Under the pieces are notes generated by a model. That model saw nothing but the letters and a program-made list of their open reading frames with translations, searched no databases and was not told where the DNA came from. The translations under genes were made by a program, and so were the position numbers. From Raja brachyura (lineage: Eukaryota), in NCBI GenBank assembly GCA_963514005.1, contig OY740782.1, positions 122,636,001 to 122,700,000 of the forward strand: a DNA stretch of 64,000 bases, written 5' to 3'. Positions 7,420 to 64,000 of this stretch are shown here, piece by piece; position 1 is the stretch's first letter, and the number at the start of each line of letters is the position of its first letter.

Positions 7420-8960
7420 AGGGCTATACAGCATGGAAACAGGCCCTTTCCAATTTGCCCAACCAAGCAAGTCCCATTTGTCAGCGTTAGGCCCAATTCT
7501 CTTCAAACATTTTCTGCATTGCCAGCATCAATCATCTTGCTCACTTCTTCAATAAACTCAATCAAATTGATGGGATATGCTTTCCCATCCACAAAGCCAT
7601 GCTGACTATCCCTAATTAGTCTTTGCCTTTCCAAATACTGGTAGATCCTGTCTATTAGAATGCTCTCTAATAACGTACCTGCAACTGGTGTTATGTTTAT
7701 CATTTGTAGTTCACAGCTTTTCCTTGCTGCCTTTATTAAATAGAGACAAAACATTAGCCACCCTCCAGTTGCAGTATTCAAGTATTGATTTACAATTATG
7801 CAGGGCCATGGTGAGTTCATACCTGGTGTTTTGTGTACAATTTTAGTCTCCTTACCTAAAGAAGAAAATCGTTGCGATAGAAGGAGTGCAATGAAGATTC
7901 ACAATATTGTGCCAGTAGATCTGTCATATAGAATACAGAACTGTACAGCATAGGAACAAGCACTTTGGCCCATAAAGTCTGTGCTGAACATAATGCCAAG
8001 TTAACATTAAATGTCAACCTCCTTAGCTGCATGTTATCCATATCCCTCCATTCCCTGCATAGTCAAGTGCCCATCTAAAAGCCTGTTATACACAACAATA
8101 ATATCTGCAATAATCACCACCCCTGGCAACATGTTCCAGGCACCCGCCACTCTGTGCAAAAAACATTACCCATCTTTTTTAAACATTGCCCCTCTCACAT
8201 AAATATACTTGCTCATATTTGATATTTCCTTCCTTGGTAAAGGTTCTGACTATCTAGGCTATCTTCACCTCTCATAATTTATATACTTCTCCCAGGTGTC
8301 CCCCCCCCCCCCCCCCCCCCCTCCCCCATATAAAACCATCCAAGTTTGTCCAACCTCTCCTTTTAGTTAAAACCCTGGTTAACCCAGGCAGCATTTTATC
8401 AAACCTGTACCCTCTCCAAAGTCTCCACACCCTTCCTGTAGTGGGGCAACAATATGAGGAAAGGTTGAGTAGAAGGTAGACACAAAATGCTGGAGTAACC
8501 CAGCAGGTGAGGCAACATTTCTGGAGCAAAGGAATGGGCAACGTTTCGGGTCAAGACCCTTCTTCAGACTGACTGAAAGGTTGAGTAGGTTTGGCCTTCA
8601 TGCTCTAGAATTCAGAAGAAGGACAGGCGATTTTATTGAGAAATATAAAATATTAGAGAGTTAGTTAGGATTGAGGTCAATTGCATATTTCACCTACATA
8701 GGATGCATAGAAATGGAGGTCAGTCTCATAAAGGTTTCAGGCCTTTCCAAGTGAAAAGAAGGTCCATTTTTCCAATGAGAGGATGGTATAATTTTGAAGT
8801 TCTCTACCTCTGAGGTTTGCGAAAGCTTTGTCATTGATTTCCCAATTTTGAGAAATTGTTGGATACGGAGGGAGAACAGAAATATTAAAGTTGATGTTGA
8901 AATTTGGGTTCATGAGGCTGAATGCTTGCTCCTGCTCCAATTGCTTCTAATCTTTTGTTT
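7420..8960. mobile_element. Cluster of nested, degraded CR1 fragments with a PLE-derived insert (8474-8575)
   Basis: Minus ORF 7503-7820 contains LESIL.DRIYQYLERQRLIRDSQHGFVDGK..INLIEF (CR1 RT region); CR1 3' ends in both orientations. Confidence 0.7.
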
Positions 8961-11900
8961 TTATTTACATCTTTGCTATTTGTGGGCAGGGTTATGATAC
9001 AATGCAACAGCACTTTCACTCCAAAAATAAATTTACACTTATCAATCTGCAAAAACTCATTGGGATATCCTAAAGTCATGAAAAGTGTCATTTCAATAAA
9101 GATTTTTTTTTGCACCTTTACAGTAAAAGCCTTCATAAGATTGAATGGATGCCAATTGTTGCTCTGAGTTCACTGATGTCCAGAAATCTCATATAATTTC
9201 ATTTCAGAATTGTTGGCTTTTGTAGAAGGTAGTGAGCAAGAATATGCCATTGGGGAGGGGGAGGGAAGGTTATTGTGCATCTGGTGTGCTTGAACCAAAT
9301 CATGTCAATCTCTCTTGAGGTTTCTCAGCATGAAACGCATGTGGCCTACCAGTTCAACAATACTTCTAATTTAATTTTCTTGGCTGAAGATTTTACTGAG
9401 AAATATAAAAACTGCTGACTGTTTCATCGTTGATCTGTTAAGTAATGTGAAATAATAACATAAAGTTCTGGAAACAGTAAGCCAGGCAGCATCTGTTAGG
9501 ACGAACATGATTGTTTTAGGTTAATAAGCTTTCATTAGATTTAATGTGATTGCTTTAACCTAGGTGCTCAAGTTTATTTCTGTCACCCTCTTCCCGCCCA
9601 TTTGTGCCTACTGCTTATCAGATAATATGAGAAAAGGTAATGTATGTTTGTGCTAGGACTCCTGAGGAGACATCAAAATGGTGATAATTATTTACTGCGC
9701 CCTTGCAAGGACATATGATTAATTATCAGTCTAGATAAAGGCCCCATAGCAGAAGCGTCCATGTCGCGGGGCTAGAAACTGGAAGTATCCTGAGCTAATT
9801 CTGCTACCACCATCATCTAATGCAACAAGTGATGGCTCCCACTGATTGTCGCCGGAAGCTTGCGTCCTTTTCAGGAAGGATGATGGGAACGATGTCAACA
9901 TTTGAAACATGGTAGATGGACATGAAAGAAGAAGTCTAGATGAAGGGTCTTGACCGAAAATGCCAACCCTCCATTTCCATCCACAGATGCTGACTGACCC
10001 AGTGAGTTCCTAACACTACTTTTTTGCTTTGTTGTGCATAACTATTAACAGCTGTTGTGGGAAGTAACATACGTGAACTCAAATGCAAATTAATTTCTTG
10101 AGGTATTTTTACCTGATAGGAAAGCGACAAAATCAGTCGCTATCCAGATATAGAGTCTCGACCCGAAATGTTGTCTGGCCATTTCCCTCCACAGAAGCTG
10201 CCTGACCTGCTGAGCTGTTCTGGTAGTTTTGTTTTGGTCCTGATTCCAGCATCTGCAGTCTCTTGTGTCTCCTGACACTCGGGTAATTTATCATTTAGTA
10301 TATTATAGTCAATCCATTGTCTTGGGAAAGCTTATCGCCCGCATTAACATCCATATTCAACATCAAGCAATAATTATGACCAGAAAATAAAGTCAAGAGT
10401 CAAATTTTTATTGTCGTATGTCCCGGACGGGACAATGAAATTCTTACTTGCTGATAATTAGCAGATTTCTTTCAGTGCACAAATTTCATTTTTTTTAAGT
10501 ACACTATAAGCTACCTGTTTGGTTTACAATAGATCATAACCTGCTGCATTGTTAGGATAGTTTGCAAACTGAGAGCTATTGTGTCAATCACTTAATTATT
10601 GGATTTACGGATTTGATGGTTGTCAACCAATAAGATTGTGGTTAATTTGTTTGTTGTCAATTTGTGAAATGACAGATAATAGTCTGCCCTTGCAAGGGTG
10701 CAGTAAATAATTATCCACATTTTGATGTCTCCTCATGAGTCCTAGCACAAACATACATTATCTTGACTCGTATTAATGACAGATAATCATTTACAGCAGC
10801 CAATTATCCTACAAACTTGCATGTTTAGAAGTGGGGAGAAACTGGAGCATCCCAAGGAAACCTACATGGTCACAGAGAAAACATGTAAACTACACACAGA
10901 CAGCCCTCGAGTTCAGGATCGAACCTGGGTATCCGGCCCTGCAAGGCAGCAGCTCTACCTGTTGCAACACTGTGCTGTGTCTGATGGTGGACTATGCATT
11001 TTGGGAGAGAGGGGCTGAACCCAGATTTACGTGGCCTTGTGTGCAAGATGTGAGCCAATAAGCTTGGCAAAATAAAGTAGCAGGAAAATTGAAAATATTT
11101 TTTAAGTTACTACCACAGTTTTTAGCTGAAATAAAAATGCCTAGAGCGATATTCCGAAAAACACAAAAGAGTTTTGAATTATTTCTTTGCCAATGCACGT
11201 AAATTAAGCTTGAGGCCGCAATGTGATTTAAATATACAGTTTATCAGTGCTATTATTACCATAAGACAGCTTTATTTTCATTTTCCTATTTCTAATGTTT
11301 CATTTTAACCTACAGAGGAATTTCTGGTCTCTGCCCAAAACGTAACTAGGTGTTTGACTTAGCAGAACTGACAGCTGATGACCTCAATGTAATGTACTGG
11401 AAAAGAAAATGCATAATCCATATTTGAAAATACTTGGAATTGTTTCAAAAATTGCTTTTGTTTCATTTGAAGCATAAAGACGATCTGACCACCAACATAT
11501 TGAATGAAGCTTGTGTGGGAATGTAACAAGGGCTCCACAAAATACTTCCAATGGCTCAGAGGGTAAGTGCAGTGGATCTGGCACTAATAAAGAATGCTCA
11601 AAACTTTGTTCCAGGATTGTGCTGAACTCTGTGATTTAGAAATGGGCACCAATGGGGCTCAACAGACTGATACAGCATGTCTGGACTAAAGGGGAAATCT
11701 TGGTCTTAGTTTCTGATCATTATCCAATGACCTTGACTAAAAATGTGTATGTGGATTTCATGTGAGCTTGGGACTTGGCTGTGATGGTAAAGCAGCCAGC
11801 CAACACTCACTTTGAAAAGAAACATAGGGCTTACATTTATATTACACCTCTCATGACCTCAAGACATCTCACAACTTTCCACAGCCAAACAAGTACTTTG

Positions 11901-13047: not shown

Positions 13048-13250
13048 TGTAGGAAAGAACTGCAGATGCTGGTTTAAATTAAAGGTAGACACATAATGCT
13101 GGAGTAACTCAGCGGGACAGGCAGCATCTCTGGAGAGACGGAATAGGTGACGTTTCTGAAGAAGGGTCTCGACCCGAACGGCCACCGATTCCTTCTCTCC
13201 AGTGATGCTGCCTGTCCCACTGAGTTACTCCAGCATTTTGTGTCTACCAC
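13048..13250. mobile_element. Fold-back non-autonomous Penelope-derived element
   Basis: Arms GGTAGACACA..TGCTGGAGTAACTCAG..CAGCATC and their reverse complement; flanked by direct repeat GACTGACTTG (13038-13047, 13251-13260). Confidence 0.75.
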
Positions 13251-16722: not shown

Positions 16723-17794
16723 TATAATAGGTAAAGTTCTGATCTAACAGCACTGTAGGAGTATCTCCACCACACACGTTGCACTGGTTCAAGCAAACAG
16801 CTCACCTCAGCCTTCTCCAGTGCAATTAGAAATGGGATATACACACACATTTGGCTGCATCACACATACTTACTGTGGGGTCAAATTTGCAATCAGAGTC
16901 TGTGCTCCCTGTATGATTTCCCCCAGGTGGACCTTGTGCAGAAGTATTGGTCTAATCCTTTGTGGTGAGGTTCTGCATTTCACCGCAACTCATGCAGTAA
17001 ACAAACTTCATGAAGGGCCTCCAAAGGAAGCCCTTCCCAAAAGAGGAATAAAAACTGACTGCAGGCTAAAGTCACATACCTCAGCCAGAAATGAGCTGGA
17101 AAAGTCAAAAATTGGTGCCGGGAAAATTAATTTTTCCCATTTTCTTTGCACCACAATTGTGTTGTTTTAGCCTTGATCGCCATTATGGAACCTATTGAAA
17201 ACACTGAGTTGGTGAAGTTCGATGTTAAAAGTTCATTCTTATGGATTTCGCCTGTTTGTGTGCTGTACAATTCTATGAATCAACAATTCAGTTGCATGTG
17301 CCACAAATTAACAGAAGCTGTTGTATTTAGGCTGGTCTTGTATGAAACTTGCCATGTGCCAAACAAGACCAGCCTAAATACACAGCTTCTGACAATTTGT
17401 GGCGCCTCTTCCATACGTATTTCTGCTGCCTCATGATGTTTTGTAGGGATCTAATTGGTGGAGCCAGGGGATATGGGGAGAAGGCAGGAACAGGGTACTG
17501 ATTGGGGAAGATCAGCCATGATCACATTAAATGGCGGTGCTGGCTCAAAGGGCCAAATGGCCTACTCCTGCACCTATTGTCTATTGTCTATTGGCGCTCT
17601 GTGCACATGTACGAAACACAATTTAATCCAATTGTTAGACAACGATATCCAGATCTGTAATTCTGTCAAAAATGAATTGGATAAACATACAAATTGAAAT
17701 GGCATTATTGGGGCAAGTTCAGTCCAATCAGTAACTTTAGAAAAATGGTGGCTGTCGAGTATTAAATAATGCTAATGGGTGTCCTTGTAGCACA

Positions 17795-39886: not shown

Positions 39887-40010
39887 TAGGTGGTGAGGCA
39901 TGGAGTGAGAGGGAAAGCAAGTGTTACTTGAAGTTAGAGAAATCAACAGCCAAGGACAGAATGGTCAGTAGGGGAATGGGAGAGGGAGTTAAAGAGCTTA
40001 GCCAAAGGCA

Positions 40011-40178
40011 GCTAAACACTTTAATTCCCCCTCCCATTCCCAAACTGACTGTTCTGTCTTGCACCTCCTCCACTGTCAGTGTGAGGCCCAATGCAAATTG
40101 GAGGAACAGCACCTCATATTTCGCTTGGGCTGCTTACAATCCAGTGGTATGCATATTGATTTATCTAACTTCCAGTAA
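40011..40178 (+). mobile_element. Penelope-like element GIY-YIG endonuclease C-terminal remnant
   Basis: Translates AKHFNSPSHSQTDCSVLHLLHCQCEAQCKLEEQHLIFRLGCLQSSGMHIDLSNFQ*; HF...H and E...I..L....GMN are typical of the PLE endonuclease tail; an inverted partial copy lies at 39890-40010. Confidence 0.75.
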
Positions 40179-40859: not shown

Positions 40860-41062
40860 ATAACAAGGAACTACAGATGTTGGTTTATACCAAAGGAACA
40901 CACAAAATGCTGGAGTAACTGAGCTGGCCAGGCAGCATATCTGGAAAACATGGATAAGTGATGTTTCAGTTCAGGAAGAAGGGTTATGACCCAAAACATA
41001 ACGTATCCATGTTCTGCAGAGGTGCTGCCTGAACCACTCAGTTACTCCAGCACTTTGTGTCT
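40860..41062. mobile_element. Fold-back PLE-derived element (diverged)
   Basis: Same architecture as 13048-13250. Confidence 0.7.
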
Positions 41063-42771
41063 TTCTTTTATATCTTTATACTGATTTAAAAACAGTTCAA
41101 ATTTTCTCTATTTAAATTGTTCGGTATTTATGTATACAATAAAATACTCTTAAGAGTTAAAAAATACCTCTTCAGGCCATCCCCAAGCATTTAACAGCCA
41201 ATTAAATATTTTGAAATGTAGTTACCTGATAGACTCATAGAAATTTACAGCATGGAAACAAGCGTGTTGTCACACTGAGTCTGTACCAACCATCAGCTAC
41301 CTATTTAGTCTAATCCCACTTTTCATTTTGCGCAAATCTTCATCAATTCCCCTCAAATTCCACCACTACATTCCTACACATTAAAGGCAATTTGCAGTTG
41401 CAAATTAACCTACCAACCTGCCTGTCTTTGGGATGAAGGAGGTAACTCAAACACCCAGTGGAAATTCGTGCAAACTCCACATGGACAGCACCCGAGATCA
41501 GGATTGTAGCCAGCTCTCTGGTGCTGTCAAGCTCCAATTTGTTCTTTTGTGCTGCCCAATTACAAGAAATCCCAGTCTTTGAAATACATTTATCTTACAG
41601 AAAGTTCTCAAAACTAGTAATGTGACTGAGATATAAATATGAGTCAGAAAGTAGTATTATAAAATAAGTAACACATTTTGCAAGAATAACCAGCCACAAG
41701 GTTTGATTATCAATTCAATGAATATCCAGTATATTTTACAATCAGAATTCATTTAGGAAATGTTATTTAATTCATCGTCAAAATGGGAGAAAACTGGAAA
41801 CCTCTGTTGTCTACTCTGTTGGATACTGTTTGTGGTGTAATTTATGTCATGGCATATGTTCAAATATTTGTTTCTGTCAAAATTATACATCAGTTAAATA
41901 TAATTTATTATAGTTTTCTGTGCTTGCTAAAAGCCTTGCATTGAGTATTTAATTGCTTAAGTGTACAATGAAGGTTTCTTGTACAGAGGTTTGATGAATA
42001 GTAATTTAAAAAAAATGTATTTACAGCCCTATTTAAAGGCACTCATTACAGTCAGTCTTATAAATCAAGCCTGCTTGCAGTCAACAGTTGCAGCAGTCCT
42101 GTGCTGACTTTTTATGGAGGTTTCAACCACTCGTGTACTTTAACCAGAAATGAATAATTTTCCAGCTACTGTATTAATTTAGCTATAAGCATATTTTGAT
42201 GTTATTTTAAGGAAGTGTTAAGCTGTAATTTGCCTCAATATTCCACAGTTATGATGAATGCAAGTATTTGAAAAAATTGCATAAGTACCCTGGAAACATA
42301 AATAATGTCTGGCTGGGTTCATGAATTAAAACTTTTATGTGCCCAATACTCCAGTTCTGTTTAAAGGGAACTCATACATTTCCTGTGGGCAGAAACTTCC
42401 TGCTTCAAGTACTTCCTCCACATTTTTCTAGTCTATCATTATTGACTACTTGAATACATTTTTACTCCAGACTAATTAAACATTGACTAGAAAACTCAAT
42501 GAAAAAATATCAGACCTTAACTTTAGCTCCTTACTAAGAATGTCAAAAATATTCTTACTTTCAAACCAAATACCACAGATGATTGCCCAGGGCTACATTA
42601 TTACAAGTATCATGATCCTGGAGAATAACTATATTTTCATGGCTTTCTACCCAGCTAAGAGAGTGAATACAACAGGATTTTTTGGTTCACAATCATATCA
42701 GCAGAACTGACAAAGTGACCAAAGTGACCTATTCTTCAAAAGAAAATTATCTGTGCCAGTTTAGCAAGTCA

Positions 42772-42920: not shown

Positions 42921-43772
42921 ACGAGAGCACTACAGAAGTACACACAATATTACTGGGTCACAGTAGGCCTCTTCAGTCATGCTATGATTATATTCTTCTT
43001 TGGGTTCATGTCTGATATTTTTGAGTGTACTTTTGCATGCTACTGTGGGGGAATTAAACGTAAACATGCTTACTATGAGGAATAGTTTATTCTCTCTAAC
43101 ATGACTCCCTCCACCCATAATTTGCTCCAGAAGTTTAAATCCTCTTCTGGCAACATTTTATGGATGCAAATAGTCCTTGTTCTTAGTTGCCACTGTCCGT
43201 GCATAAACCCAGATAGACAACGTACGGTATCTAGGTGTCCACTTTAGAAAAACAGCTGGGAAGTCTATCCAGTAGCATGTTCCATTAATTAAAACGCTGA
43301 GCTTTAGGCTATAGTGAAGCTGGTCACTGGGCTGATTTCATTGCTAAACTCTTCCATAAAGATAATTGTATTAAAAAATAATTTTCTAAATTGTTCGCCA
43401 GGAAACATTGCCCTAAGCTTTCAAGGATTATGTGTATGAAGATTAAGGAAATCTGAAAAAAAAACTTGGGAGAAGTAATTGGAATCTATTGAGTTGTTTT
43501 AAAACTCAGAATGCTGCCTAATATAATTTACTGAAAAAAACATAACATTTTTTCTCCGTTTGGTCGGCATATGACTCAACTCCCACAACACTTGTTTGAC
43601 TAGTGACTATCCTCAGCAGAGGTCAGGCAAGTGATCAACTTATGTAAAACAGCTATGTTAAGTCAAAGTGCACTATCCTGGAATGTCATTGTCACCGTCT
43701 CATGGCATAAAATGAGTAACAAATGTAGTTTTGCCCGCATTAAATCATTAAAAAAAAATACAAAACCCTTAC

Positions 43773-44987: not shown

Positions 44988-47900
44988 ACGTTATTTCTTA
45001 TTAATTTATGGGGTTGTGCGTTGCTGGTAATCCTAGCATTTGTTATTCATCCATAAATATCTTGTCAACTGACGTTCAGAGGGAAGTTGTTGTATTCAGG
45101 CCCAACAACAATGAAGCAATGGAATGGTATGTTTCAAACTTGGAGTAAGGAAGGATGGGACATAACTTACATCCTTCTCCCTGGCCCACTTTCCCAATTA
45201 CTTTTATGTCTTCAGAAAGTGTAAAAGCACCCAGGCCCTCTTTTAATTCACTGATAAACTGAAAAGTTTAGGATAAAGTACAAGATTCTGCATTACCTAC
45301 CCTCCCCCAAGCCACTGCCCACCACCCCCAAAATGACGTATTGACTTCTGCTATATGTTCTTTGTTTGTTACTAAATACTCAACTCATGCTGATCTTATG
45401 GGTCCTAGATTTGTGTTGGAACTTCCTGATTGGCAGCTCACTGAATACTTCTGAAAATAAAAATGCACCACGTGCCTTGGTTTCACTCATTTATCCTTAG
45501 TGTTACAACTTCAAACAACTCGAACAGCTTTGTCAAATATGATGTTCAAGAAGGAACTGCAGATGCTGGAAAATCAAAGGTAGACAAAAGTGCTGGAGAA
45601 ACTCAACGGGTGTGGCAGCATCAATGGAGCGAAGGAAATAGGCAACTTTTCGGGCCGAAACCTTTCTTCAGATATGATACCCCTTTCTTATTTGTGTGGT
45701 CCTTTTGCAAAATGCATCATATTATCTCTAATTCTATATCCTGGATTAGTAATGAATTAGCCACCAAATCTAAATGAGTAGTTAATTAGTCATACCAAAT
45801 TATTAATATTAATTTCTTCACATTTCTCTCTCTCTCATTAGACACTTGGTTTACCACTGTTCCCAAACAAGGTACAGATATGCAAATACAAAGTGTTCAA
45901 TGTCTACAATTTCTTTACTATAATTACTACTGTCTCTGCCTCTTGGGAACATATCCTTATTTTGGCTAATCTCAAGTTTTTAAATATCTGTAAAACCTTT
46001 TAAAATCTGTTTTTATGTCTCTTGCTAGTTTACACTCATGCTCTAAGTCCTTTGGCTTACTGCTTTTTTGGCAACCTTCTAAGCCTATTCCTATAATTTA
46101 AAGTTATCTTTAACATCTCTTGCACTAATCACTAATCAGACCACTAAGTTTGCACTTTCCCTGGTGTTTTTTTATTTGTTAAGGGAATTTATATTTTTTA
46201 TGTTATGAATTATTCTTTCATTCCTTGCCTTTATTTAACTAGTTTTTTTAATCTTGTTTCCCAATCCACCATGGTCATTTCGGCGTTTGCTTTGCTCAGA
46301 TTTTTTTTAAAACTATTTTTTGCCATGATTAAATCACCTTCAAATGAACTATAAAATTCTATCATATTATGATCACACTTCTGCAGAGGCTCCTGTTAAT
46401 TGATCTGGTCTCACAATACAATATTACACGTAAAATAGCCTGTTCAATGGCACATCTATATGTGTAATTATCTTAAATGATTTATATAAACTCCTTTTTA
46501 ATAAACTCATTTTACATATGTTTTATATAAACTTTTCCCAAACCTATTAGAAGATCCATGTCCTTTAACACTATCATCACTTTGAAGAGGACCAAACACT
46601 TCACTACACCAGTGCTTTCTTAGCATCTCCAAAACAATATAGAGAACGTCATTTGGTTGCTTTAATCAATCCTTTATTGTCCAGGATATTTCTTTCACTA
46701 CTTTTTCCTATTTCATCCATTGTCTGAAAGTTATCTTTGGTTAAATATTAATTCCCAGTCAGTCTCAATCACATCACTTTTATTAGATCAAAACTGTATA
46801 TTTTGGTGTAAAAGACCATCTATTTTATTATGTACGCTCCATGTACTGTTAGTATAAAGTTGCTAGACCTAACCCCTACATAATCCCAGTAGCTAATGCT
46901 ATACCCTTTTCTTGTTCTTAATCTAATAGTTCAAGGGTCTCCAATGAGGTACATAGTAGCTGTGGACTACTCTCTAATTATTAGTAAGATGGTTCAATTG
47001 CCTGATAACAGGCAACTTCCCTAACTGATGCACAAATCAGATGATTGTTACCTGTAAGATTATTTCGACTGTGTATCTTTAAACTCTTCTGCATAAACGT
47101 TTTCCTTTTTCTTCCCATGCTGTTTGTTTCAAAATGGACCGTCACTAGACTGGATCCCACTTTCACTTGATATGCAAAGTTCTCTTCCAGCCACAGGCTT
47201 AACCCATAATATTTTCTTTCTCAACTAAAATCCATGTTGTGTGGAATTTTTCTTTACAAAATCTTTAGATATGCAATCTGACCCCTGCACAGAAGTCTAA
47301 AATTTATATACTTTAGACTTAGGGAGAGGTCTTTGTTAGGTCACCTCTATTAATTATGCACATATAATATTAGCATTATGTTCCAGTCAAGATAAATGTA
47401 ATACACACATGTTGGTGAAGTTGAAAACACGTTCATTTATATTTTGTTACCTCAAGGAAGCACTTTCTCCAGCAGAAATTACTTATTCAAATGTCCTGTC
47501 ATAGAAATGCATTAATTTTATTTTGAATATTCTGTATTTATAGTTTAACATATCCATGGAAACATCTGCATTGAATGCCAATGGATATCTCTACACTCAC
47601 TTTACACTTCTTAGTCTGGATTAAGGTTCATAATTACAAATGTTGTGCTTTAATTCTATTTTGTATATATTTAGCATAAGGGATTGTTATTGGAGCAAGT
47701 AAATCATGACATTGGCAGATCACTGAATCAGAAAATTATTAATTTACTTGTATGGGTTAAGATTCCTTTAAACATATAAGAAGGCAGTGCTGCATTTGAA
47801 CTTTTCCATGTAATTAAACTGAGAGAAACAGTGGGGAGAGGTTAAGAATAGCAGAAGCATGGGGCTCCAGAAATAATTGTAGCTATACCTCAAAGGTACA

Positions 47901-50010: not shown

Positions 50011-52569
50011 CTATTAGAAAAAGTATATATATTTAAAGTAAATGGCTATTTGGCAAAAAGATTTCCAAAAATCTCTGTTACAAAAATTGTCATCTACAAG
50101 CCCAATTTTTTTCTTCTCGATATTTACGTAAATGAAATGCAATTATTTTGCCTACAGCTTCCTTAAAACATAAGTTTTCCATCTGAAGCTAAACATAAGG
50201 AACAAAACAACATTAACCATTACGCTGCAGCAGTGGTCCAATGTAATAGCATGGTTTCAGAATACATTTCAACAACTTTCTTCACAAGGGCGTTTCACCT
50301 CTCAACTGCGCACTTTATTTCATGTGCTCTTTATTTATTGCCTTTGCTCCACAATGAAATGGTTAAAATAAGTGAGTGGAGCAAAACAGATAAGATTTCA
50401 TGGCACCATATGTTGGTGCTCTGAGGCTTTTTTCCTTGGCTGCTTGTTGCACCCAGAATTTGCTTTGTGCTCCACGCAGATAGTACAGTAGAACGTGGCA
50501 GGGAAGGCTTCATGCTGATTGTGGTCACTGGGGGAGCAAGTAAGTTCACCTAGCCAATAATATGCACTGTCTTGCCAATTGGAAGAAGTTCTGAGCTAAA
50601 AAAATAAAGCAAATCTGGGACCTCGCTGTAGCTGTTGTGAATTCAGTACTGCAAGATTCTTTACAAGTGACAAGAAACTAAAATTTTATTGCAAATTGGT
50701 GGCTCAAGGTACATTAATTTCGTAATTTTTGAAATGCAAAATGCAAATACGAAATCGTAACTTTGATGTAATTAAATATGGTCAGAAATAATGCAAGTCT
50801 CGTTTAAGGACGAGGCAGCAATTTGACATAAAGAATTAATAAAAATATTGAAAATAACAGCACTACCTTAGGATCGAGTTAAAACAAAATATGGGCAATA
50901 TATATCTGTCTGGCATAATGTATTAGTAAGTTGTAAGTCTGATTAATTTTACTGCATTGATATTGTGCCAAATCCATGTGGCATCAAAAACTGTAGTTAA
51001 TAGTTACTGATCTGATTTCAACCAAAAACAATATTAATACAAGGCACCACCTGTGTTAATCATAGTCAGTGGCGGATGATTTTTTTACTAAGAGGAGGTG
51101 AAACAAAATATGGCCATGTGGAAATTACACAACTCAATCCGGTCTGGGCCTTCACAATTATTACAAGTAATAAAACATGCAAGTAATATCCTGTAATGTG
51201 GGATCAAGAAATGTAAAATTAGCAAAAAGAAATGTAATCATGAAGGTGCCTAAATGGGTTTGGTTTTAATTGTCAGCTGTCAAAAGACAAGGAATGGAAA
51301 ATTCAGTTGGGAGGCTTGGGTTGGCTATGTAAAGCAGTAAAGCAAAGGTGATTAGCCCTCATAGAAACCTCTCTTCAAGAAAAGTGAACACAGGTGGCTG
51401 AGAAGACTCGGCATTAGTTCGTTGTGAATACTTTATGTTTCGCGCCGGATTGCTCAGCCGCTGTGCGTATGTACACCGGATTTTGGATGTGTATTGATGT
51501 GACATTGTGGGGGGGGGGGTGGGGGGGGATAATGTGGGAACACTGCGTCGTGTTATTCCAAGCCACCAATTTCAAGGCAATTGTGCTTTAAATATCCTTA
51601 TTTTTCTTTGACCGAATGCTTCAAAAACGTATTTTGGAGATTGACACGCGTGTAGGATTGCATTAAAGGATAAATTAGTGGAAATATCTACAGCGACAGT
51701 TACGAGGTTATTATTTCATTGCTGAACATTATATTTCATCTATGACTTTTCTCCGTTATAGCAGGTACCCACAGCGGGTTTCTGTATTTAGCTTTGTCTG
51801 TTTTGATTCCGTGCCTTTACAGGAACTTTGCCTTTGCATGTTTTATTGCCACGAGCCCTTCATGAGCTGTGTAAATAAATTGTCAATAAACTGGAATAAC
51901 AACCATCGCCCCTCTTTGAATTCGCCCTAAGCCGCTTGATTCTGGTTTCTGATGATTTATCTACATTGAAATATGATTTGCTCGCCAATTCTCCGCCAAA
52001 TTTGCAGAGGCAGGTGCGCTGGGCGGCGGCGTTGAAGTAAGATGGGATGGGGTGGGTAATTGCTGGTGCCGGGAATCGATCGAGTCGATCGATCGAATGG
52101 GACGAAAATGAGCAGAGTTACAAACTGCAGGACCACCTTTCATTGAGGCACGGGAGTATTTCACTCGATTATTCAGCCGGGGAATCAACTAAGCAGTGGA
52201 GGAACAGATTCACTCCTAAAATACAAGTGTCCAGAATCCCTTCCTTCTTCCACCAAAAATAAGATTTGGTTTGTTCTTTTTTACTCATTAACACAAGGTG
52301 TTGCTTTTGCATTATTAATATTATACGATGCTGCCTTAACCTCGAATAGCGTGTAAGCCCCTCCAGGGAAACCGCATCTCCCATCAACTAGCTGTTACTG
52401 ATGGAAGTGTCTGCACTAAGAGAAGATATAAAGCGGATGGGACGACGTTTGCTTTCAAGCAATCGTCTCATATTCCAAGTCAATGCGAGCAAACCGAGAG
52501 AATAAGTAATATGACATTGCAATCAAAAAGCAAGTTTCAAACCATGTTCAAAAGATAGAACAAAAATGA

Positions 52570-52885
52570 TTGGGTGACGTTTCGGGTCGAAACCCTTCTT
52601 CAGACTGAAGTAGTTAGATAGAGCTCTTAAAGACAGTGGAGTCAGGGGACATGGGGGAAGGCAGAAACGGGGGTACTAATTGTGGATGATCAGCCATGAT
52701 CACATTGATTGGCGGTGCTAGCTCGAAGGGGCGAATGGCCTACTCCTACACCTATTGTCTATTGACTATGGTCGAACCGAAACGTTACCCATTCCTTCTC
52801 CCCAGAGATGCTGCATGTCCCGCTGAGTTACTACAGCAATCTGTGTATCTTCGGTTTAAACCAGCATCTGCAGTTCCTTCCTACG
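52570..52885. mobile_element. PLE-derived fold-back element interrupted by a CR1 3' end (52612-52768)
   Basis: Left arm GGGTGACGTTTCGGGTCGAAACCCTTCTTCAG; right arm CCGAAACGTTACCCATTCC...CAGCATCTGCAGTTCCTTCC. Confidence 0.75.
52576..52603 (-). ncRNA. Candidate minimal hammerhead ribozyme motif (PLE-associated)
   Basis: Minus strand CUGAAGA-A-GGGU(UUCG)ACCC-GAAA-CG-UC: catalytic boxes, 4-bp stem II with UUCG loop, palindromic ACGU stem III, GUC cleavage triplet; stem I is weak. Confidence 0.5.
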
Positions 52886-54357
52886 CCTAGAAATGTGTCA
52901 GTGGTTCTTGCTCAAGGTGTGGTTTGAAAGCTGACAACTAACTTCACGAATTAGAGAGTCGTTGGTTGAAAGGAGGATTAGGGTTAGGAAGGATGTGAAT
53001 GGAATTCAAACTTCGGAACTTGGGACCTTGGTTCCCGCCTTTGTCGATGCAAACTAAACCAATCCGATCGAAACTAATGCAACCCAAGGCTATTGTTTTA
53101 AGCTTGCGCTTTTTAAAAGTAGACAATGTTTATCATGAAATGGTGCATTGTCACAGATAATTGGAGAACGTACACAGCATAGTGTATTGGTGTAATATCC
53201 TTTATAAATCCATGGGGGGGGGGGGGGGGGGGGGGTATTAGCGGATTCAAGGCAATGGGATTGATGCAGGAAATAGCGTTGAAGTCAACGGTCTGCGTGA
53301 TGTTGACGAGGGGCCCGGGAGGCCGAATTGCTTCCCCGGGTCAGCGTTGTTGAGTTAAGCTGTTCTTATATTTGTGCAACCGGAAATACATTTACTTAAT
53401 GGTCATATTCAGATAAACTTTAGTGGCACGATAAAACTTTCTATGGACTGGATGGAATCTCTCCACAAAGAAAGGTAACGAAAAAGATCTGCCGTCTTGG
53501 AGCCATGTTTCTGCACAACAATATCCAGTTTGTTCAACGCGTTTCCGTACAACGCTGTAGCTGGTATTATTCAGCACCTGAATTGCAGTTGGAGAGAACA
53601 TGTTACAAGCATTTATTATCTTAACGGGAACATTCTCTGCTGTAATCCCCACGGCAAATGTACAGTAACAAAGGGGTCGTTTCAGAATGATATTCTGTAC
53701 TAAAATAAGAGTAATCATAGTAAATTGGCCGCTTGAAACGCGGAATAATCGTATTATCCGTAAAGAGTTTAACAAAATCACATTAAATAGTAATGATGGT
53801 CAGATTACGGGGGATGGAAATAACAGGACTTTAAGCAAATCCCTAAACATGGTTTAATTCAAAGCAAATTAGTGGGTCGCGAATTATTTGTTGTCTGCTT
53901 CTCTCCCCTCTTGCTATTCATATTTTAGAATTATATTCAATATTCATGATTTCCTGTAAATACCCGAACAAAAACAGCAAAAATATAAACTGACCAGAAC
54001 TTATTACATTAGGAGGTTGTAGTCAGCATAAGGAATTGTTCGAATAAAGTAGTTCAGGATTAATTTGCATTCTATTACGTTGAATTCTAACCGTGAAGCT
54101 GCCAGATACAGATTCAGCCTGGATTTCGCCTGTATCTGGATTGAGTAATCGTTTTTCATTTATTTAACTCTGTGAGTGAAACTGTCGCTGGAGATCAAAC
54201 AATTACTTCTTAACCACCTACATTCTGGAAATAGTTTGGTTTGGTTAAATGGGATCATATATGAACACTAAAAATAAACACAAAATACTGGAGTCAACAC
54301 AATATTTTCACTGTTCCTCGGTACACGTGACAATAAACTAAACTGAACTGAACTGAA

Positions 54358-57330
54358 CGAACTCAGCGGGTCAGGCAGCATCTCTGGGGAAAAGGAATCG
54401 GATGGAGTGCGTTCATCAGTCTGATTAAGCGTCTCAACCCGAAACGTCACCTATTCCTTTTCTCCAATGATGCTGCCCGTCCAGCCGAGTTACTCCAGCA
54501 TTTTGTGTCTATCTTCGGTGTAAACCACAATCTGCAGTTCCTTCTTACACACATGTGAGCACTAGTTAGAGTATTCCAACTTCTTGTGGGATAGTATGTC
54601 CAACAAAACCACGTCTCTACACTAAGAGTTTACATTGAGATTCAAAATTAATGTCTAATGTCCCTGTCTTAAAAATAATAACAATTGAATGATTTATCCA
54701 AGACAAGGATTCGCACTTAAAAATTGGGGAGAGTTGGCTGGGGTGGTTAACTTCCGAACTGCCCGTGCATTATGGTCATGTAGTCTCGGAGTTGCAGTCG
54801 CCGTCCAACAATGCGCCACTTTCCGCGCACAGCTCCCAGAAGTGCCACTATTTAACTTTGATCCTTTATTTAACATGCAGTATATCTTTGGGCGAAGCGG
54901 GGGTAGGCGAGGATAGGAGCTATTGACATTGGGCAAACGCATGATAAACTCAGACTTCCCATGTGATAAAGGTGACAAACTGAAACACCTTTTCTTCTGT
55001 AGTCGCGTGATTTCGGTAGTTATTATCTTATGTTTTTTTTCTTTATTGTGCATTATCTGTGCGTATTGTGTGCACGGGTACATTAAGCTGCTGCAAGTAA
55101 GATTTTAATTGTTCCGGTGTCAGTATATGTGATAATTGAATACTCTTGAATGGGTGATTCTGGGAGAAATTAAGGGCAGAAATGTCGATGAGAATCTGTA
55201 GTGGAGAGAGAAAGAAAGGGCCTTACTTGTACCAGGGTCATCTGGGATCCAAGGGCCAACAGAATCTTTTCCGTTTTGGTCGGGTAGGGGTTGTCTCGGT
55301 GTTTATAGAGCCATTGTTTCAAGGGTCGAGCCATATCCTGAAGAGCTTGTCGTTTGTGCCTAACTTTTCCGCCGCCCTGCCGAGAGCTGCAAGCAACGCA
55401 GAATAACAAATGAGAAATCGTCAGTCACCACTAAACAGACAAAAGTAGGACCCTGCTGAAGGCAACCAAAGCAACGAGTCAACTGATAACGGAAGCATTT
55501 TATATGCTGCACCAAGATAAAGTCTCACACAAAGCGCACCTCCCGCACTATGCCCCGCACATCATTCGTGTACATTGAATAGACCATGCTCGGCAAATTA
55601 GCAACACGCGTTGCAATCCACCGCGCGTGTGCATTGCACGCCTAGATTGTGCATTGTACAATACCCCCACAATATTCAGTTATTACTCATCACATAAATG
55701 TAAAGAACAGCAATTGTGATAATAGTACCTTGACAAAAAAAAATGCTGGAGTAACTCAGCGGACCAAGTTCGGCAGACTGAAGAAGGGTCTCGAACCGAA
55801 ACTAGACCCGAACCTATTCCTCTTCTCCAGAGATGCTGCCTGACCCGCTGAGTAACTCCAGCATTTTGTCTATCTTAGGTGTAAGCCAACACCCACAGTT
55901 CCTTCCTGCACATTATTCCTTCTTAAATGTTATTCCCTTGTCATGTACATAAATGTTATTCTCATCATGTATCTTTTCACTGCAAGTGGATCGAATGTAA
56001 TCATGTATTGGCTTTCTGCTGACTGGTTAGCACGAAACAAAAGGCTTTTCACTTTTCAGCTCGGTACATGTGACAATAAACTAAACAGAACTAAATTGAA
56101 ATTGAAATAAACTTTATGATAGAACCGCCTGGAGACATGTTTGAGGTGTGACCGCACATCGGTGAGATGTGCGTGTATGCGTCAGATAGGTTGTGTGTGT
56201 TGGGGGATGGGGAAAGTTGGAGGATGTTTCAAGCCCATCAGCTTTAATCGGGTCACTTCCACGTGAAACTGTATTTAGAATTCCCAGGTGTCTGTCCTGC
56301 TGAGTATTTCCAGCGTTTTCTGATTTGTTCCAGATTTCCAGCATTTGTAGTTTCTTGTTTGCTTTTCTATTAATCATTATGTGTCAAAGTAAGGTGCTGG
56401 ATCAACCATCAGAAATAGCCAATTGATAGCCAGCCATCCATCCACATAAATTCAAATCTCACATTATGTAAAGAAAATACTAACAGAACTTTCTTCTTTA
56501 ATCAAACTTGAGCCAATTCCCCCGATGAAGGCGCCTGTCGGACCTGACGGGAAAAATCCAAATCACCACAGCAATACATTCTCGCTTTAAATTAGAAAAT
56601 AGACTTAAACCGAACCCATTTATTGTTACGTAGAAACAAGGAATTGCAGATGCTGGTTTACAATAAAGATACAACGTGCTGGAGTGACTCAGAGGGTCAG
56701 AAGTCTGAGGAAGGGTCCCGACCCGAAGCGCCATCTATCCATGTGCTCCAGAGATGTTGCATGGTCCGCCGTAACTTCAGCACTTTGTGTCCATTTTATC
56801 GTCAGGAAGTTTGGTTTTTCTCTAATGATTTCGTACAGATTTAAAAAATGGGATTGGATGAACCCAAAATGCGCATCGTTTAATGAAAATAAATAGAACG
56901 GTAGATGCTGAGGATCTAAAAGAAATGTCTCAGCCGGAAGACAGACATTCAGCGGAGACTCTTTTAACTTTTGCTTGAAGGGTCACTGAAATTAGTATTA
57001 GTACCTCTACACGTCGTGGGTTCATGGCGCTTGTTGCAATCTATGACAATAGACTAATCCAAGTACATTCGTTGGAGGCGAAGTGTTTGTGAGGTTTCTC
57101 ACGGAATGACGAGGCTCAGTGGAAATGGGACTATCCCTGTCTTTTGGACGGTGCAGAACGATGCCAGGCCTAGGCATAACTCGGCTTCTGTCATTGTGTT
57201 TAAAGAAAGAAGGTAGGGTTTCAACCGGAAACATCACCTACTCCTTATCTCCAGAGATGCTGCCTGACCCGTTCAGTTATTTTGTGTCCATCTTCGGTGT
57301 AAACCAGCATCTGCAGTTCATCCCTACACA
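54358..57330. mobile_element. Several short PLE-derived copies in mkx introns (54358-54552, 55735-55912, 56628-56792, 57205-57330)
   Basis: Each carries GATGCTGCC...GAGTTACTCCAGCATTTTGTGTC and/or a CTGANGAAGGGTC..GACCCGAA variant; the span also includes coding exon 2. Confidence 0.7.
55227..55386 (-). CDS. mkx: MKX coding exon 2, N-terminal part of TALE homeodomain ([53 protein letters not shown]), 160 nt
   Basis: Acceptor TTGCTTGCAG|C, donor CAA|GTAAGG; TALE PYP motif; phase matches both flanking exons. Confidence 0.97.
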
Positions 57331-58844
57331 TTTGTTTTTGAAATTTGTGTTATATGTACAATGCATTTCACAACTTCAGGACATGTTAAAGTCGGTGTAG
57401 TTTTAGTGCACGCGACAATAATACACAAAATTGAAAAAAAACTAAATAAACATGTGAAATAAAATTTGCGTTTTGATAAAGGCACTGACATGGTCGCAGA
57501 CAGACATTTCCGTGTGTCGTTGAATGAGAAGTAAACGCCATCTCTAGGTCAATGCAATTGGGACGTAGATGCTGGAATGTTTCATTACGCGTGGTGCATT
57601 TATATGAATGTATGCGTATGAGATCGGCAAGGAGATTTGTTCAGTGTGAAGAGTCCGCCGCTGCTGGGGAAATGTGAGTGTATTCGAGACGACACCTGTA
57701 GATGTCGCTGCGAATCGTTGGGCCTGATGTTCAGTTGCTGCTGATCCTGGCCCTGATGGTTCCTCTGACGAAACATGTCCCTTTGAACATAGCCAGACTG
57801 TCGCGCCGTTACTAAACTTGCGCACTGCAACATATGCGACCCAAAACCACTGTCATCACATACGATATGTGTATCGTAATATTGCATAAGTAACGCGGGT
57901 AACTCTAACAGTGGATTTCTACATGCTTTTGACATTAACGTTAAGAGAATGAACTGTGCTATAAAACCAAAATAATATTCAAATTCTCCCGGAATCCATA
58001 ATGACGACCCTATAATAAAAACAGCAGGTAATTTTGATTTGATATGTTTTTTCGTTGGAACTGAAATATATATTACACAGATATAACAAAAATATTGCCA
58101 GATAACATTTATTTGCAAGCTTGTGTATGTTTATATAATATTTCACCGTACTTAAATTGTTTAAAGATTTTACAATACCACGTAGGGAAAGATGTTTACG
58201 TTTGTGGTCGACCACTGTGGAAAAGCTACACCAGCTAAATACATTCGAGCAGTTAAAATGTCAATGTTGGTTGAATTCTATTTTATTCCCCTTCTTTGCC
58301 TTATTTATGCAATGAGGCGTGAGCACTATTTTACGCGTCCAGTTCGGTGAGCTTTTAAATGAAAGGTACAACGTGGTTGACTATATACGTTTAGTTAGTT
58401 AGAATATAACAATTTCTAATAGTTCACATTCTTAAATTGATATGTCACCTCTGGTCTGTTCAGAATATTGTAATCATTTCCCCAAGCAGATAGTTTCACA
58501 CAGTTCACACTGAAGCAGTAAATTTGAAAAAAAAATTAAAAGGTTTCAAATGTCGTGCATTGGTTTACCCAAGTATAACAAGATAGTGTGCACATCTTGT
58601 TCTAGTTTCTCTACACGGTGAACGCGTTACTTTTTAGTTTGGGGAAGCGGGTGCCGTTGCACATGCCAAGATACATACAAAAACACGAACACCTCTCCGC
58701 CAATGTCGGTTTGCCCAAAGCCTATTTACAAGTGCAAGAGTGTCGTTCAGGTTCGCTCAGTCTATGTCCGCTTCCGCTAACACTTCTGCAGCCCGTCAAA
58801 TGTAATAATTTAATACAGATCTTATATTGTGAAGATGGTCGTAC

Positions 58845-59023
58845 CCTGACCTCCTGTGCCGCAGACCGCGTTGACTTCTGCTAGACGGGCTGTCCGGCAT
58901 CATTAGCTCCCGGTGCTGTTCCTCCATCACTTCGATGTACGTTCTGCTGTTCCTCTCCACCTCATTTGCCTTTTCTTCGAAAAGAACCTGGTTGGCAAAT
59001 TTATTGAAAACGATGGTGTTCAT
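58845..59023 (-). CDS. mkx: MKX coding exon 1 (MNTIVFNKFANQVLFEE...GLRHRRSG), 179 nt, ends phase 2
   Basis: ATG at 59023-59021 (context AAAAAGATGA); donor GG|GTACGA at 58844. The upstream acceptor TTTTTTGCCTTCAG| puts the exon start at ~59087, which implies an upstream non-coding exon. Confidence 0.93.
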
Positions 59024-59999
59024 CTTTTTGCACGCTCCGGGGCCACCGTCTGTTCTGTATAATGAATGGAAGGCCGACCCTGCTTCACTGAAGGCAAAAA
59101 AAAAATCAAAACAGATCATAGGTTAACATCAAACTCAAGGGGCGCAGTCCGGCATGTAAATGAAGACAAAGTACACTCTATGCACAAAGGAAGGGGTCGG
59201 CAGGTTTCTAGGGATAGAATGAAACACGGGTGAAAGGCCTTGCTGTTCATTATCGCCGGCAGATAAGAGTTGGTTTTCACACTCCGCCTTGTTTACAAAC
59301 CTCAAAATAGCGAACATAGATTTACAGATGAAACCGTTTACTGAGGAATTGCGTCTCGTTAATCGGCCTGATTTTCGCCCACTGAGTTTAGTACGCAAGG
59401 ATTAAATTGTTATCTCATCCAAATAGGAACCATTGATATAATTATCCCCAGCCCAATGCAAACTGGGGGGGGGGGGGGGGGGTGCGGTGCGAGCAACCTC
59501 AGTAAACGCATGTGACAAGTTAACTGAAGCCACTTGTTAGAACAACTCGGAGACACTAGAGGTTGCAGATGGTGAAATGTTGAGTAAAACACAGAATGAT
59601 TGATGAACTCAACGGGTCAACGCCGTCTATTCATGTTGCTCCCCAAATGCTGCCTGACTCGTTGAGTTCCTTCACCAAGTTGTGTATTTTGTTAGAACAA
59701 TGTTGAGGAAGATTTACATCCCGCCTATTTTGTTCTCTTTATCACAACAGATACACAGAGGGGTAAAAACTTGACTAGGGAGGGAAAAAAAGCAACTGAG
59801 TGTCCAGGGGTTTGAAGTGAAAAGTTTGGTCTCCGTCTATCTGCCACTGGCACATTTGAAGGACAACGCGAGCCTTGTAAACGTAGCAATAGAAACGCTA
59901 GTAATGATTAATGTTTCTTACGTTTGTGTTAGAACTGAACGCGGGGTTGACTTGGACAGAGCTTCCATTCAGAACGGATGATTAGATAAGAACATCTGG

Positions 60000-61100
60000 A
60001 CGAGGTTGAGGAGTATCACACACAAAGCGCACGGGCCACCGAGGTTGTGGGGAGAGTTTGCAATGTCCCCCAGTGTAGGCAGTGGATTGTAAGTACACAC
60101 CCCCTCTCCCCCCCCCCCCGGTTAGTTCCCAGACAGAGAGATGGTCCGACACGTGTCTCCTCCGCGAAGATTAGATAATGGTCCCGTTGTTTCGCAGCCT
60201 ATATTTTACCCGAGTCCCCCCCCCCCCCGCCCCCCGCCCCCCGCTGGTTACCCGCGCCCCCGTTTCACCCGAATTCGCTTTTGCCAGCTGATTTTTCTGT
60301 TCAGAATGGGGGTTGGATGGGCCAGCACTACGGGGATCCTTCCGGGTTGAAGGATTTAAAGCTTGTGTGTTATGGAGTAGTCTACGACTAATCTGTTACT
60401 AATCTTTAGCCCGCAGGCGGTCCCGCTGATCAGCCAGCCGGACCGAGAACTCCCCGTGAACATTCGCCAGCGCCGGGTCCGGGATCCAGCCAACAATTTG
60501 CCTTCGTCTCGTCCGTTACCACAACCAACCACCCACAACCACCGCCAGTCCCTGCCCAGACCCACTTTGCAAAATACAACATGTTCCCGAAGTGTTTTCT
60601 AAAATCCCCATCACATTCTGCAGAGAACAAGCATAGCGCCGAGGTAGTCGTGCACACTTACACTCCCAATCAATACTACCAAACAAAGCAGAAACGCGTT
60701 GACTTCACCTGGCTCTGGTTGGAAAGACCCGATCACAGCAGTAAAGCGATAAGAGCGAGAAGTAATCCAGCTCCTGTGTGCGCCACCATTCCCATTTCAC
60801 ATCGCTGTCAGTCAGACTGATCTGAAACCGCACGAACCACGCTCGCCTCTCTTCTATTTACCCTGATGATGGCCCTACCCCAGAACCTGAATAAACAGCG
60901 TCGCTCATGTTTCCCAGCCGCGCTGCCTAGTCTGCGAACATAGACTGAATGCGTTATCCATGTTCCAGGGCAGTGCAGCGAGAGGCTGGCGCTGCCTGCT
61001 TTACACCATCCTGTTCTGCCGCTCCTAAATATAGCGCGCTTATTTCACTTCCAGCAATAACATTTCCGTTATAAATAAAGTGACCTGGTGCATTTTCGCT
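60000..61100 (-). promoter_or_regulatory. CpG/GC-rich promoter and probable non-coding first exon of mkx
   Basis: High GC and CpG density just upstream of the first coding exon; candidate donors on the minus strand at 60708 (CAG|GTGAAG) and 60661 (GTAAGT); CTAAATATAG (MEF2 consensus, TATA-like) at 61025-61034. Confidence 0.55.
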
Positions 61101-61709
61101 TTATTTTTCTCTTAACAAGTGTATCACTGATAATATTTTAATCGGTGACTTGAAATGTTCAATAATATTTTCAAAGAAAAGCGCGAGGAATTACTCATTT
61201 GGTAGGTAATTGTTTACAATGCTTACAATTATGTTATTCTGTCTTTTTAGGCTTGCCACATTATAAACTTCCCGTAAATTCACATTTCCATCGATAGTTC
61301 TATTTTACTGACATGCTTATATTACTTTGTCCGATTTAAGCAACCCCACTGCATCTTTTTTTTTCCAAATATAAAAGATAAACTATATATTTGCGGAAAA
61401 GTAATGTTGATTATAAGAATGCACTGAAGTGCACACGCAGAATTTCGTTTCTATCCCTCCCCCCCCCCCCCCCCATTTAATCATTCAGCATGCACTATAC
61501 AGGTAGACCGGGATCTCCCAGACATGGTGAATTACCGGACTTTATTTCGATTAGATCGATTCTCTTGCTAGAAGATTGATTGCTGGAAAATAGGACTATC
61601 AGAGGAACTCCTGGCTTTCTGCGACATTTATAATCTACAGGAAGACACACGAATAAATCAGCAACCTGTTAGCTGGACCCGTTTCTGAGTTGATTCCAAT
61701 TTTTGATTA

Positions 61710-61898
61710 AGGAACAGCATCCATAATATATATTTTCGAAATCGATACATTTGATCAGTTGATCAAATGTATCGATTTCGAAATTATATATGAAGGATGC
61801 TGTTCTTGAAATATCACGCTACCGTTATATCCCGTTTGGTGAAGTATGCAGTGTTGCATTCTTCACAAAACGGGATATAACGGTAGCGTGATATCTCA
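61710..61898. repeat. Two adjacent long palindromes (hairpin 1: 61710-61807; hairpin 2: 61807-61898)
   Basis: Hairpin 1 has ~48-bp arms around a GT loop with a perfect 24-bp core. Hairpin 2 has 40-bp arms (61811-61850 / 61855-61894) with 2 mismatches and a GTGT loop. Confidence 0.95.
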
Positions 61899-63073
61899 CA
61901 TATTAATTAAAATACTCTTTTAATACTATCGAGCAAGCTAAATATTATACCAAGCCAGGCATAGTATAGCACAGTTCTATGAAACGGGATCATATTTTAA
62001 CATTACACAAGGTGAATAAATTATATTAGTTACCGCTGAAGACTACATTAAGGTAACCCATGATTACAATCTCCACGCTGAAAAGTGACCAGAACCTGGA
62101 GTTAATTCCAGTCCCCTTTATTGGCTTGTGTTGACAGTCCCGGTGGCACGACCGAAAATAATGCGATGAACACTCCTAATTCACCAAGTGTTGGCTGCAA
62201 GAGTTAATGTCACCTTTTCCTTTTACGGGTTGTTATTTAACTGGATTCGCCCTGTTGTCAAAACGATGGACGAATAAATGATGGAGTTTCCTGTGGGGCT
62301 GGGGTCTGTACACTGCTCGACACAGCCTGTCAGCAACTCAGTGGAATAATTGTAAACACAAGTGCGACACAAACTGTGTTAGAAGCGTTAGAAATAAAAA
62401 CAGAAACATTGTAATTATACATGGTCGATCTTTGACAAAACAAATGACATTTCTAATCTCCATCCCTTTTGCACTCATAACGCTGGGAACTAAAGTTTTT
62501 CGTAAACTTGATTATCTGAACCGTTTCAAAATCTGAAAGTTTAAACATCCCAGTAAAACATTGCGATTGTGTACATTAAGCAAAGGGATGAATCAAATCA
62601 AATACCAGACTCGCTGTGTATTTTACAGATATCTGGTCGTTTTCTGACATCAGGCCCTCGCTGATTCCCTTCAGCGGTGTTTCACTGTATCTGCCGCTTT
62701 ATTCGTCCGTTTTGTACGGTCTCACAACCTCTCGTGGCCGCTGTCGGTGAATTGTGTGAAACTTCTAACCACGGACACTAAACACAACCGCAGGACGCGC
62801 TCGTTGCAACCTATTCGAATTCAGTTTCTCGTTTCCAGCCCTCGTTTTATTGTGTTAATCTCGACTAATATTAGCACGAAGAATGGAGATGGACGCGATT
62901 CACGCGAATGTACTGCTTGACGCGTACTTTTATGAATGACCCGCAAAATAACCCTTCATCACAGAGTTTTTACCTTCAGTTAAAGCAGAGTGAAAGATAA
63001 TTTGAGGAACCTATATTAATTTGTTGAGACAAGGGTCTCATCGCGCCTGCTAGAGGGTATCGAGGCTTTGTAA

Positions 63074-63076
<3 letters not shown>

Positions 63077-63106
<30 letters not shown>
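63077..63106. repeat. (TA)n microsatellite
   Basis: Direct read. Confidence 0.95.
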
Positions 63107-63109
<3 letters not shown>

Positions 63110-64000
63110 CTAATATATATATTAGCTTCTGTCCAATACTTTTCATTACCAAGGGTTTCTAATTAAGTGGATATCATAGAACATGAAAACTTTCCATGTT
63201 GTCTCTAGGTATGACATTCGGACTCCGCGCTCAGATAAAATAGATGTCACGTAAGCAAGCCGTCCCCAAGCCGCGCAACTTGGCGTGTAGGAATCTCTGA
63301 GTGAACAGGATGGAGTGCGAACTGTGGTCTGAACTGGAAGTTGGGCAATGTTTGCGGTTGAATTCCATTCGGTTTAACTCAATTTGGTTGTGTTTCAACA
63401 ACAAAAAAAACATGCATCAATTAAATGCCAATAGTGTTTGTTTTACGGACTAATTAACCATAATCAGAGAGCTAAATGAAAACCTGTCTGGCTCGTCGCG
63501 AGCAATTTATCGGCTGCGCTCACGGAAAATGGCAAAGCCGCCTTGGTTATGTGCGCAAAATTAAACCCCCAGCACGAACTCGGGTAGGTGAAACCGCGCT
63601 GTATTTATACCGACGGCTCTCTTTTGCGTGCAGTGGAAGGTTTTTAGTGCTGTTGTTAACAACATGAATGGCATTTTCTCCATAGCCTCATCCGCCAGGA
63701 TACAATATTTGTTTCACTCACAAACATGAACGCGATCGTGCGCGCCACCGATCCTTTTGCAGCCACGACGTTTAGAAATAAACGGCAGGACTTATTAAAA
63801 CTCATAACGTTCTATAGATTTATTGGATAGGCAGCGAGGCTATTTGGTGCAGAAATGTTCGACATGGAAGCTCCTGATAAGATGACACAAACAAATAATA
63901 TTTGTAATCCTAAACCTTCAGTGATAAACGGTCTGGGATGAAGAGAGCAAGGTGTATTGAGATGGATTACTGTAATAGACAAGACTTATCACACATGTTG

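Follow-up and report, generated by a model that had tools for sequence, protein, structure and literature searches.

Two abutting palindromes upstream of mkx in Raja brachyura as a probable relic of a non-autonomous DNA transposon

The two long palindromes that lie next to each other upstream of mkx in Raja brachyura are probably a single relic, approximately 205 bp in length, of a non-autonomous DNA transposon of a MER123-like double-hairpin type, with Crypton-like mobility and a possible function as a cis-element of mkx. It is most likely that the element represents a new copy of an already known kind of ancient non-autonomous repeat. A preceding sequence-only reading had offered three explanations for the twin hairpins, namely a cruciform-forming element, a two-hairpin structured or pre-miRNA-like RNA, and the relic of a hairpin-type element. 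The last of these emerged as the most likely one on account of the two abutting, unrelated palindromes and the end repeats, whereas the RNA explanation received little support. A rough model makes cruciform extrusion plausible in energetic terms, though extrusion describes a property of the DNA and not its origin.

The first palindrome (hairpin 1, H1; 61712–61805, no strand; 30% GC) pairs positions 61712–61757 with 61760–61805, which results in 46-bp arms with 3 mismatches, a 2-nt centre (61758–61759) and a perfect core of 24 bp (61734–61757). If stretched to 61710 and 61807, it comprises 48 pairs with 4 mismatches, and the inverted-repeat and pairing analysis reproduced the initial description of this hairpin (61710–61807, arms of ~48 bp, a 2-nt loop and a perfect 24-bp core). 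The palindromes TTCGAA, ATCGAT and TGATCA, reported earlier from the core of H1, were all found there; as many 6-bp palindromes as these three occurred in 1.5% of 20,000 shuffles and in 0.8% of the 24-mers of the window, a comparison made post hoc. The second palindrome (hairpin 2, H2; 61807–61898, no strand; 41% GC) pairs 61807–61850 with 61855–61898 and possesses 44-bp arms with 3 mismatches, a 4-nt centre (61851–61854) and a perfect stretch of 27 bp (61811–61837). The claim that H2 adjoins H1, is unrelated to it in sequence and has 2 mismatches in 40 bp held for the inner 40 pairs, and the whole 44-pair arm has 3. Only one base (61806) separates the 46-pair and the 44-pair stem, and local matches between the arms of H1 and those of H2 extend over 5–6 bp only, which means that the sequences are unrelated.

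The twin hairpins are real and lie beyond chance expectation. In the window, that is, the whole stretch of 64,000 nt of DNA that was analysed, H1 and H2 contain the longest perfect inverted repeats of all those whose loop measures 40 nt or less. The longest perfect arm measures 27 bp, in comparison to 10–14 bp in all of 40 Markov-simulated 64-kb windows, and DNA folding of a 231-nt region around both hairpins yielded z = −19.3, with none of 200 shuffles being equally stable. The arms have decayed to a nearly equal extent (H1 3/46, H2 3/44; together 6/90), and the six internal mismatches are T-T, A-G, A-A, A-C, G-A and T-T. A bias of these mismatches towards transversions was considered as a signal and dismissed (5/6, P = 0.053 against a transition fraction of 0.58 between repeat copies; 14/26 in the other hairpins of the window). 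No ORF of at least 70 amino acids extends over the element, and none of the four frames tested across it gave a Pfam match.

Short direct repeats occur at both sides of the pair. According to the motif positions, a candidate left boundary is ATTAA at 61706–61710 (no strand), inside TGATTAA at 61704–61710, and a candidate right boundary is formed by two overlapping copies of ATTAA (ATTAATTAA) at 61902–61910 (no strand). These words are located 2 bases to the left of H1 and 4–12 bases to the right of H2, and by chance, TTAA would occur no more than 8 bases from the stem end on each side in ~0.4% of cases (post hoc). The bracketing by TGATTAA (61704) and TTAATTAA (61903), which had been pointed out before, is indeed present. 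Likewise, the statement that the pair lacks shared outer terminal inverted repeats (TIRs) stands, as the best inverted match between the outer ends is an AT-rich one of 9/14. The recurrence of AAACGGGAT at 61982, which had been regarded as noteworthy, is explained by chance, since at least one 9-mer shared with the element was detected in 109 of 202 control segments of 600 bp. Two unrelated palindromes that are one base apart, show equal decay and are bracketed by the same word look like one inserted unit.

A known family that probably has such an architecture is MER123, which would be about 230 bp long and consist of two consecutive long palindromes with similar end, core and junction words. 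The element probably matches this family. It was not filed as MER123 because the literature search retrieved no MER123 sequence; nor did it retrieve a length or structure of MER123, or a report of the site, and four motifs from the window had no match in the literature. In Repbase, MER123 figures among the unclassified DNA transposons and not among the Cryptons (PMC5753468, Table 5), and it is present in chicken (PMC3500645). Like MER123, a low-copy family, the element is non-coding, and a setting near a developmental gene would be expected for such a family, as all 35 human MER123 copies, or 48 of 50 by another count, are situated in conserved regions (PMC3500645). The differences are that MER123 is documented in the literature consulted for mammals and chicken and not for chondrichthyans, and that the element measures ~205 bp instead of the presumed ~230 bp. 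Related ancient families do reach chondrichthyans, as entries named Eulor12_CM appear in a published table (Table 1), the suffix CM presumably standing for Callorhinchus milii.

With regard to mobility, the element would have been moved in trans by a Crypton-like tyrosine recombinase acting on the short ATTAA end repeats. We infer this because Cryptons lack TIRs, because fungal ones carry terminal direct repeats of 4–6 bp (PMC3212892; PMC13465315) and because Eulor5 and Eulor6 proved to be Cryptons. The element resembles non-autonomous Cryptons of the Eulor5/6 type in being short and non-coding and in having no outer TIR of the DDE type; these families also have ancient copies in some lineages and younger relatives in others (PMC5753468). 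The putative ends (ATTAA at 61706–61710 and 61902–61910) are reminiscent of the fungal terminal repeats, and the lack of TIRs, as in Cryptons, applies to the element as well. On the other hand, no ORF for a tyrosine recombinase is located near the element, and the argument from ATTAA is undercut because Kojima and Jurka reported animal Cryptons to be free of terminal repeats (PMC3212892). As regards the earlier statement that Crypton-derived Eulor repeats are palindromic and end with TTAA, the Crypton class is assigned in the text consulted (PMC5753468) to Eulor5A/B and Eulor6A–E only, and a palindromic, TTAA-ended structure is not described there.

The search for relatives yielded no sequence homologue of the element within the window (self-BLAST). 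The previous statement that nothing similar occurs there applies to sequence, but not to shape, as other long hairpins exist at 13084–13248 (66-bp arms, 5 mismatches) and 40892–41068 (75-bp arms, 13 mismatches). No locus in the GTDB genomes contained the pattern of the H1 core, the only part searched there, and the whole element had no match in plasmid and phage collections. A translated frame across H1 yielded no candidate among short proteins and, among 1.84 billion representatives, one weak match to an unnamed protein of 765 amino acids (E 4.9e-5, 42% identity), which consists of six short stretches, unlike what the translation of a 200-bp copy would give. As no second copy was found in the window, among plasmids, phages and short proteins or, for the H1 core, in GTDB, the status of an interspersed repeat is a putative one.

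The main rival of the relic is a young, neutral insertion: a non-autonomous element that is, or was until recently, mobile in batoids would by chance have left a copy in the open promoter domain of mkx, where it has no effect. We consider this rather unlikely, even if the arms, which differ at 6 of 90 pairs and hence about as little as those of one copy of the abundant local repeat (5/66), fit it equally well and in this respect count against an old relic. No other copy is present in the 64 kb, in comparison to up to 17 overlapping self-matches for local families, and the low divergence could also be due to low CpG decay and arm repair. Template switching can restore the pairing of existing stems (PMC8794818), and in the element, switching from one arm to the other, together with low CpG decay, may have preserved the similarity of the arms; near-perfect arms therefore need not mean youth or selection at the RNA level. 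Standard MITEs derived from Mariner, hAT or piggyBac are comparable in that they are short, AT-rich, palindromic and non-coding, and TTAA, the target of piggyBac or Kolobok, occurs at both sides of the element. In contrast to them, the outer ends of the element do not form an inverted repeat (at best 9/14), so that the outer TIRs of a standard MITE are missing, the palindromes are internal and serial, and the window contains a single copy. As a variant of the young insertion, H1 alone might be a TTAA-targeting foldback MITE, with ends that we assume to be Kolobok-like, in which case H2 would be a separate, neighbouring element. The reading TTAA-GG...CT-TGAA places H1 two changes away from a TTAA-bounded palindrome, but the outer pairing of H1 amounts to 3/5 only.

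An origin in place, without any mobile element, would require two local template-switch mutations. A single template-switch event produces a perfect stem of 30–55 bp, and further events are possible where a hairpin already exists (PMC10710096). The arms of 44–46 bp fit this range and no homologue was found; near-perfect stems without G-U pairs are also a feature of template-switch hairpins and de novo miRNAs in that paper. The hairpins described there are single, whereas two abutting ones with very short centres are present here, and two events at a distance of one base would be needed, followed by the same amount of decay. As more than 6,000 such hairpins are reported for the primate lineage (PMC10710096), ~0.1 abutting pairs per genome are expected if the events are independent (own arithmetic with a genome size of ~3 Gb), which makes an independent origin of H1 and H2 unlikely. 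Since template switching also leaves TTAA at both ends unexplained, we regard it as an improbable source. Equally adjoining, unrelated hairpins of terminal size, with small palindromes inside the first, would result if a small linear DNA virus (presumably parvovirus-like) or plasmid had integrated with its left and right ends joined and its genes lost. This is very improbable in view of the lack of an ORF of more than 90 amino acids in 61–64 kb, of a Pfam match in the frames tested and of a phage or plasmid match. Palindromes are known trouble spots for assembly, and an artefact from fold-back reads was also taken into account. It is hardly to be expected because the arms are not identical, as they would be in fold-back chimeras, but differ by 3 mismatches per hairpin, and because two different, unrelated palindromes are involved.

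The hairpins might also function as RNA, if a promoter-upstream or antisense transcript with two hairpins were cut by Drosha or Dicer to small RNAs. Very stable RNA folds are indeed predicted on both strands (z = −15.7 on the plus and −15.1 on the minus strand for H1; −12.7 and −17.0 for H2), and upstream transcription is common in open promoter domains. Animal pri-miRNAs, however, have an imperfect stem of ~35 bp and a loop of at least 10 nt, whereas the stems here comprise 44–46 bp with centres of 2–4 nt (loops of 4 nt in the folds). In addition, only one of the six internal mismatches would be a G-U pair on the minus strand and none on the plus strand; this pattern is that of a DNA palindrome rather than of a selected RNA stem, though six mismatches are few. 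No Rfam family matched over the element at the curated gathering score: none of the 28 E-value matches in 61500–62100 reached it, four alignments being pairing-only matches to long-hairpin MIR models, and no known miRNA family was thus recovered. A canonical pre-miRNA pair is unlikely and the RNA explanation as a whole, including the earlier proposal of a pre-miRNA or structured RNA, quite improbable.

The gene next to the element had been named mkx (Mohawk), and this is corroborated by the homeobox domain Homeobox_KN and by matches to Mohawk proteins. Its coding exons were located on the minus strand between 21411 and 59968 by tblastn of six named Mohawk proteins and comprise the stretches 59968–59921 (the first 16 amino acids of an Amblyraja isoform), 59089–58847 (with the conserved start MNTIVFNK at 59023), 55388–55224, 50010–49858, 44103–43774, 21715–21680 and 21596–21411. 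The minus-strand exon at 43700–44109 matches 324 of 645 candidate proteins; among the matches listed, nearly all named proteins are Mohawk and the best one is Mohawk of Amblyraja radiata (96%). The stretch 59921–59968 (minus strand) encodes 16 residues that all recur at the N-terminus of isoform X2 of Amblyraja Mohawk and form an extension ahead of the MNTIVFNK start. The element lies upstream of both the first coding exon that could be mapped, at a distance of 1.7 kb, and the start at 59023, at 2.7 kb.

A weak candidate for the core promoter or start region of mkx is 60900–61035 (minus strand), with the TATA-like TATATTTA at 61033 and a likeness to a mouse Mkx primer. Positions 60906–60918 match part of the mouse Mkx −45 primer in 11 of 13 bases, which is not significant, as 3 such matches occur in the window in comparison to 1.14 expected; the layout of the mouse Mkx promoter used for comparison was that of PMC4836271. 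Two further attempts to relate the hairpins to rodent promoters were discarded. A likeness of the rodent −1.0 kb ChIP primer to the end of H1 (8–9 bases, by eye) is expected by chance among ~20 primers, and for the mouse Gtf2ird1 element (−519 to −373), no match to the hairpins emerged; from the inferred spacing, it would lie nearer to the gene.

The 5' end of mkx is surrounded by a domain of at least 10 kb (54001–64000, no strand) in which CpG is not depleted at an ordinary GC content. The observed/expected ratio of CpG per 500 bp amounts to 0.51–1.37 in all 20 bins of 54–64 kb, in comparison to 0.34 over positions 1–54000. Such a domain resembles the methylation valleys of developmental genes, and it is likely that this region is unmethylated in the germ line. 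The CpGs of the element had been described as symmetrically intact; they are, with a ratio of 1.76 that exceeds that of the region, but their survival is in part regional. As CpGs persist throughout the region, the argument for a retention near a developmental promoter loses weight, and CpG retention was rejected as a sign of selection.

If the element is a transposon relic, an effect on mkx as a cis-element is possible rather than probable. Any such effect would be exerted as DNA, either in an enhancer-like manner or by absorbing torsion. The AT-rich core of H1 with its 2-nt centre would be extruded as a cruciform under negative supercoiling behind an active promoter. In a rough textbook model of supercoiling with assumed constants, the 24-bp core of H1 yields a net gain at sigma −0.04 to −0.05. 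Both hairpins together are extruded only at sigma −0.05 in a 5-kb domain or at −0.06 in a 3-kb domain, again with assumed constants.

How much the element matters depends on its copy number and orthology. If the match to MER123 is true, an unclassified ancient repeat of amniotes would be extended to cartilaginous fish, and the element, with its clean ends and hardly damaged arms, would help to classify a family that is found almost wholly in conserved human DNA (MER123 35/35; PMC3500645). A young neutral insertion would be ordinary. It is improbable that the element is orthologous across jawed vertebrates with compensated arms. Just as improbable is the farthest-reaching possibility, a MER123-type insertion older than the split of sharks and bony fish. 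It would have been at Mkx, a tendon gene induced by mechanical load, for more than 400 million years, its two palindromes remaining paired through compensated sequence changes, would act there as a double-cruciform sensor or absorber of promoter supercoiling, and would reveal a Crypton-like origin of the unclassified family by its near-intact copy.

Beside the element, several other structured repeats were observed in the window. An abundant palindromic repeat family (13084–13248, 40892–41068, 54305–54551, 55744–55914, 8470–8578, 52564–52608, 45542–45673 and others) shows up to 17 overlapping self-matches and arms of 66–75 bp. At four sites it carries the loop word CTGAAGA...CGAAA, which we take to be the minimal hammerhead core of Penelope-like elements; at the Rfam gathering score, no hammerhead was detected in the window. 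At 17322–17382, two perfect 20-bp arms enclose a loop of 21 nt, and at 39955–40058, a 48-bp hairpin is interrupted by 8 mismatches. Furthermore, the plus strand at 9728–9805, ~11.6 kb beyond the stop of mkx, resembles an HDV-like ribozyme, with 40.7 bits for the Rfam model CPEB3_ribozyme (gathering score 35). The first stems fit, the 3' stem contains five non-standard pairs, and the match begins where the left arm (9623–9728) of a pair of 106-bp inverted repeats ends; the right arm is located at 10670–10775. This ribozyme-like sequence probably belongs to a mobile element.
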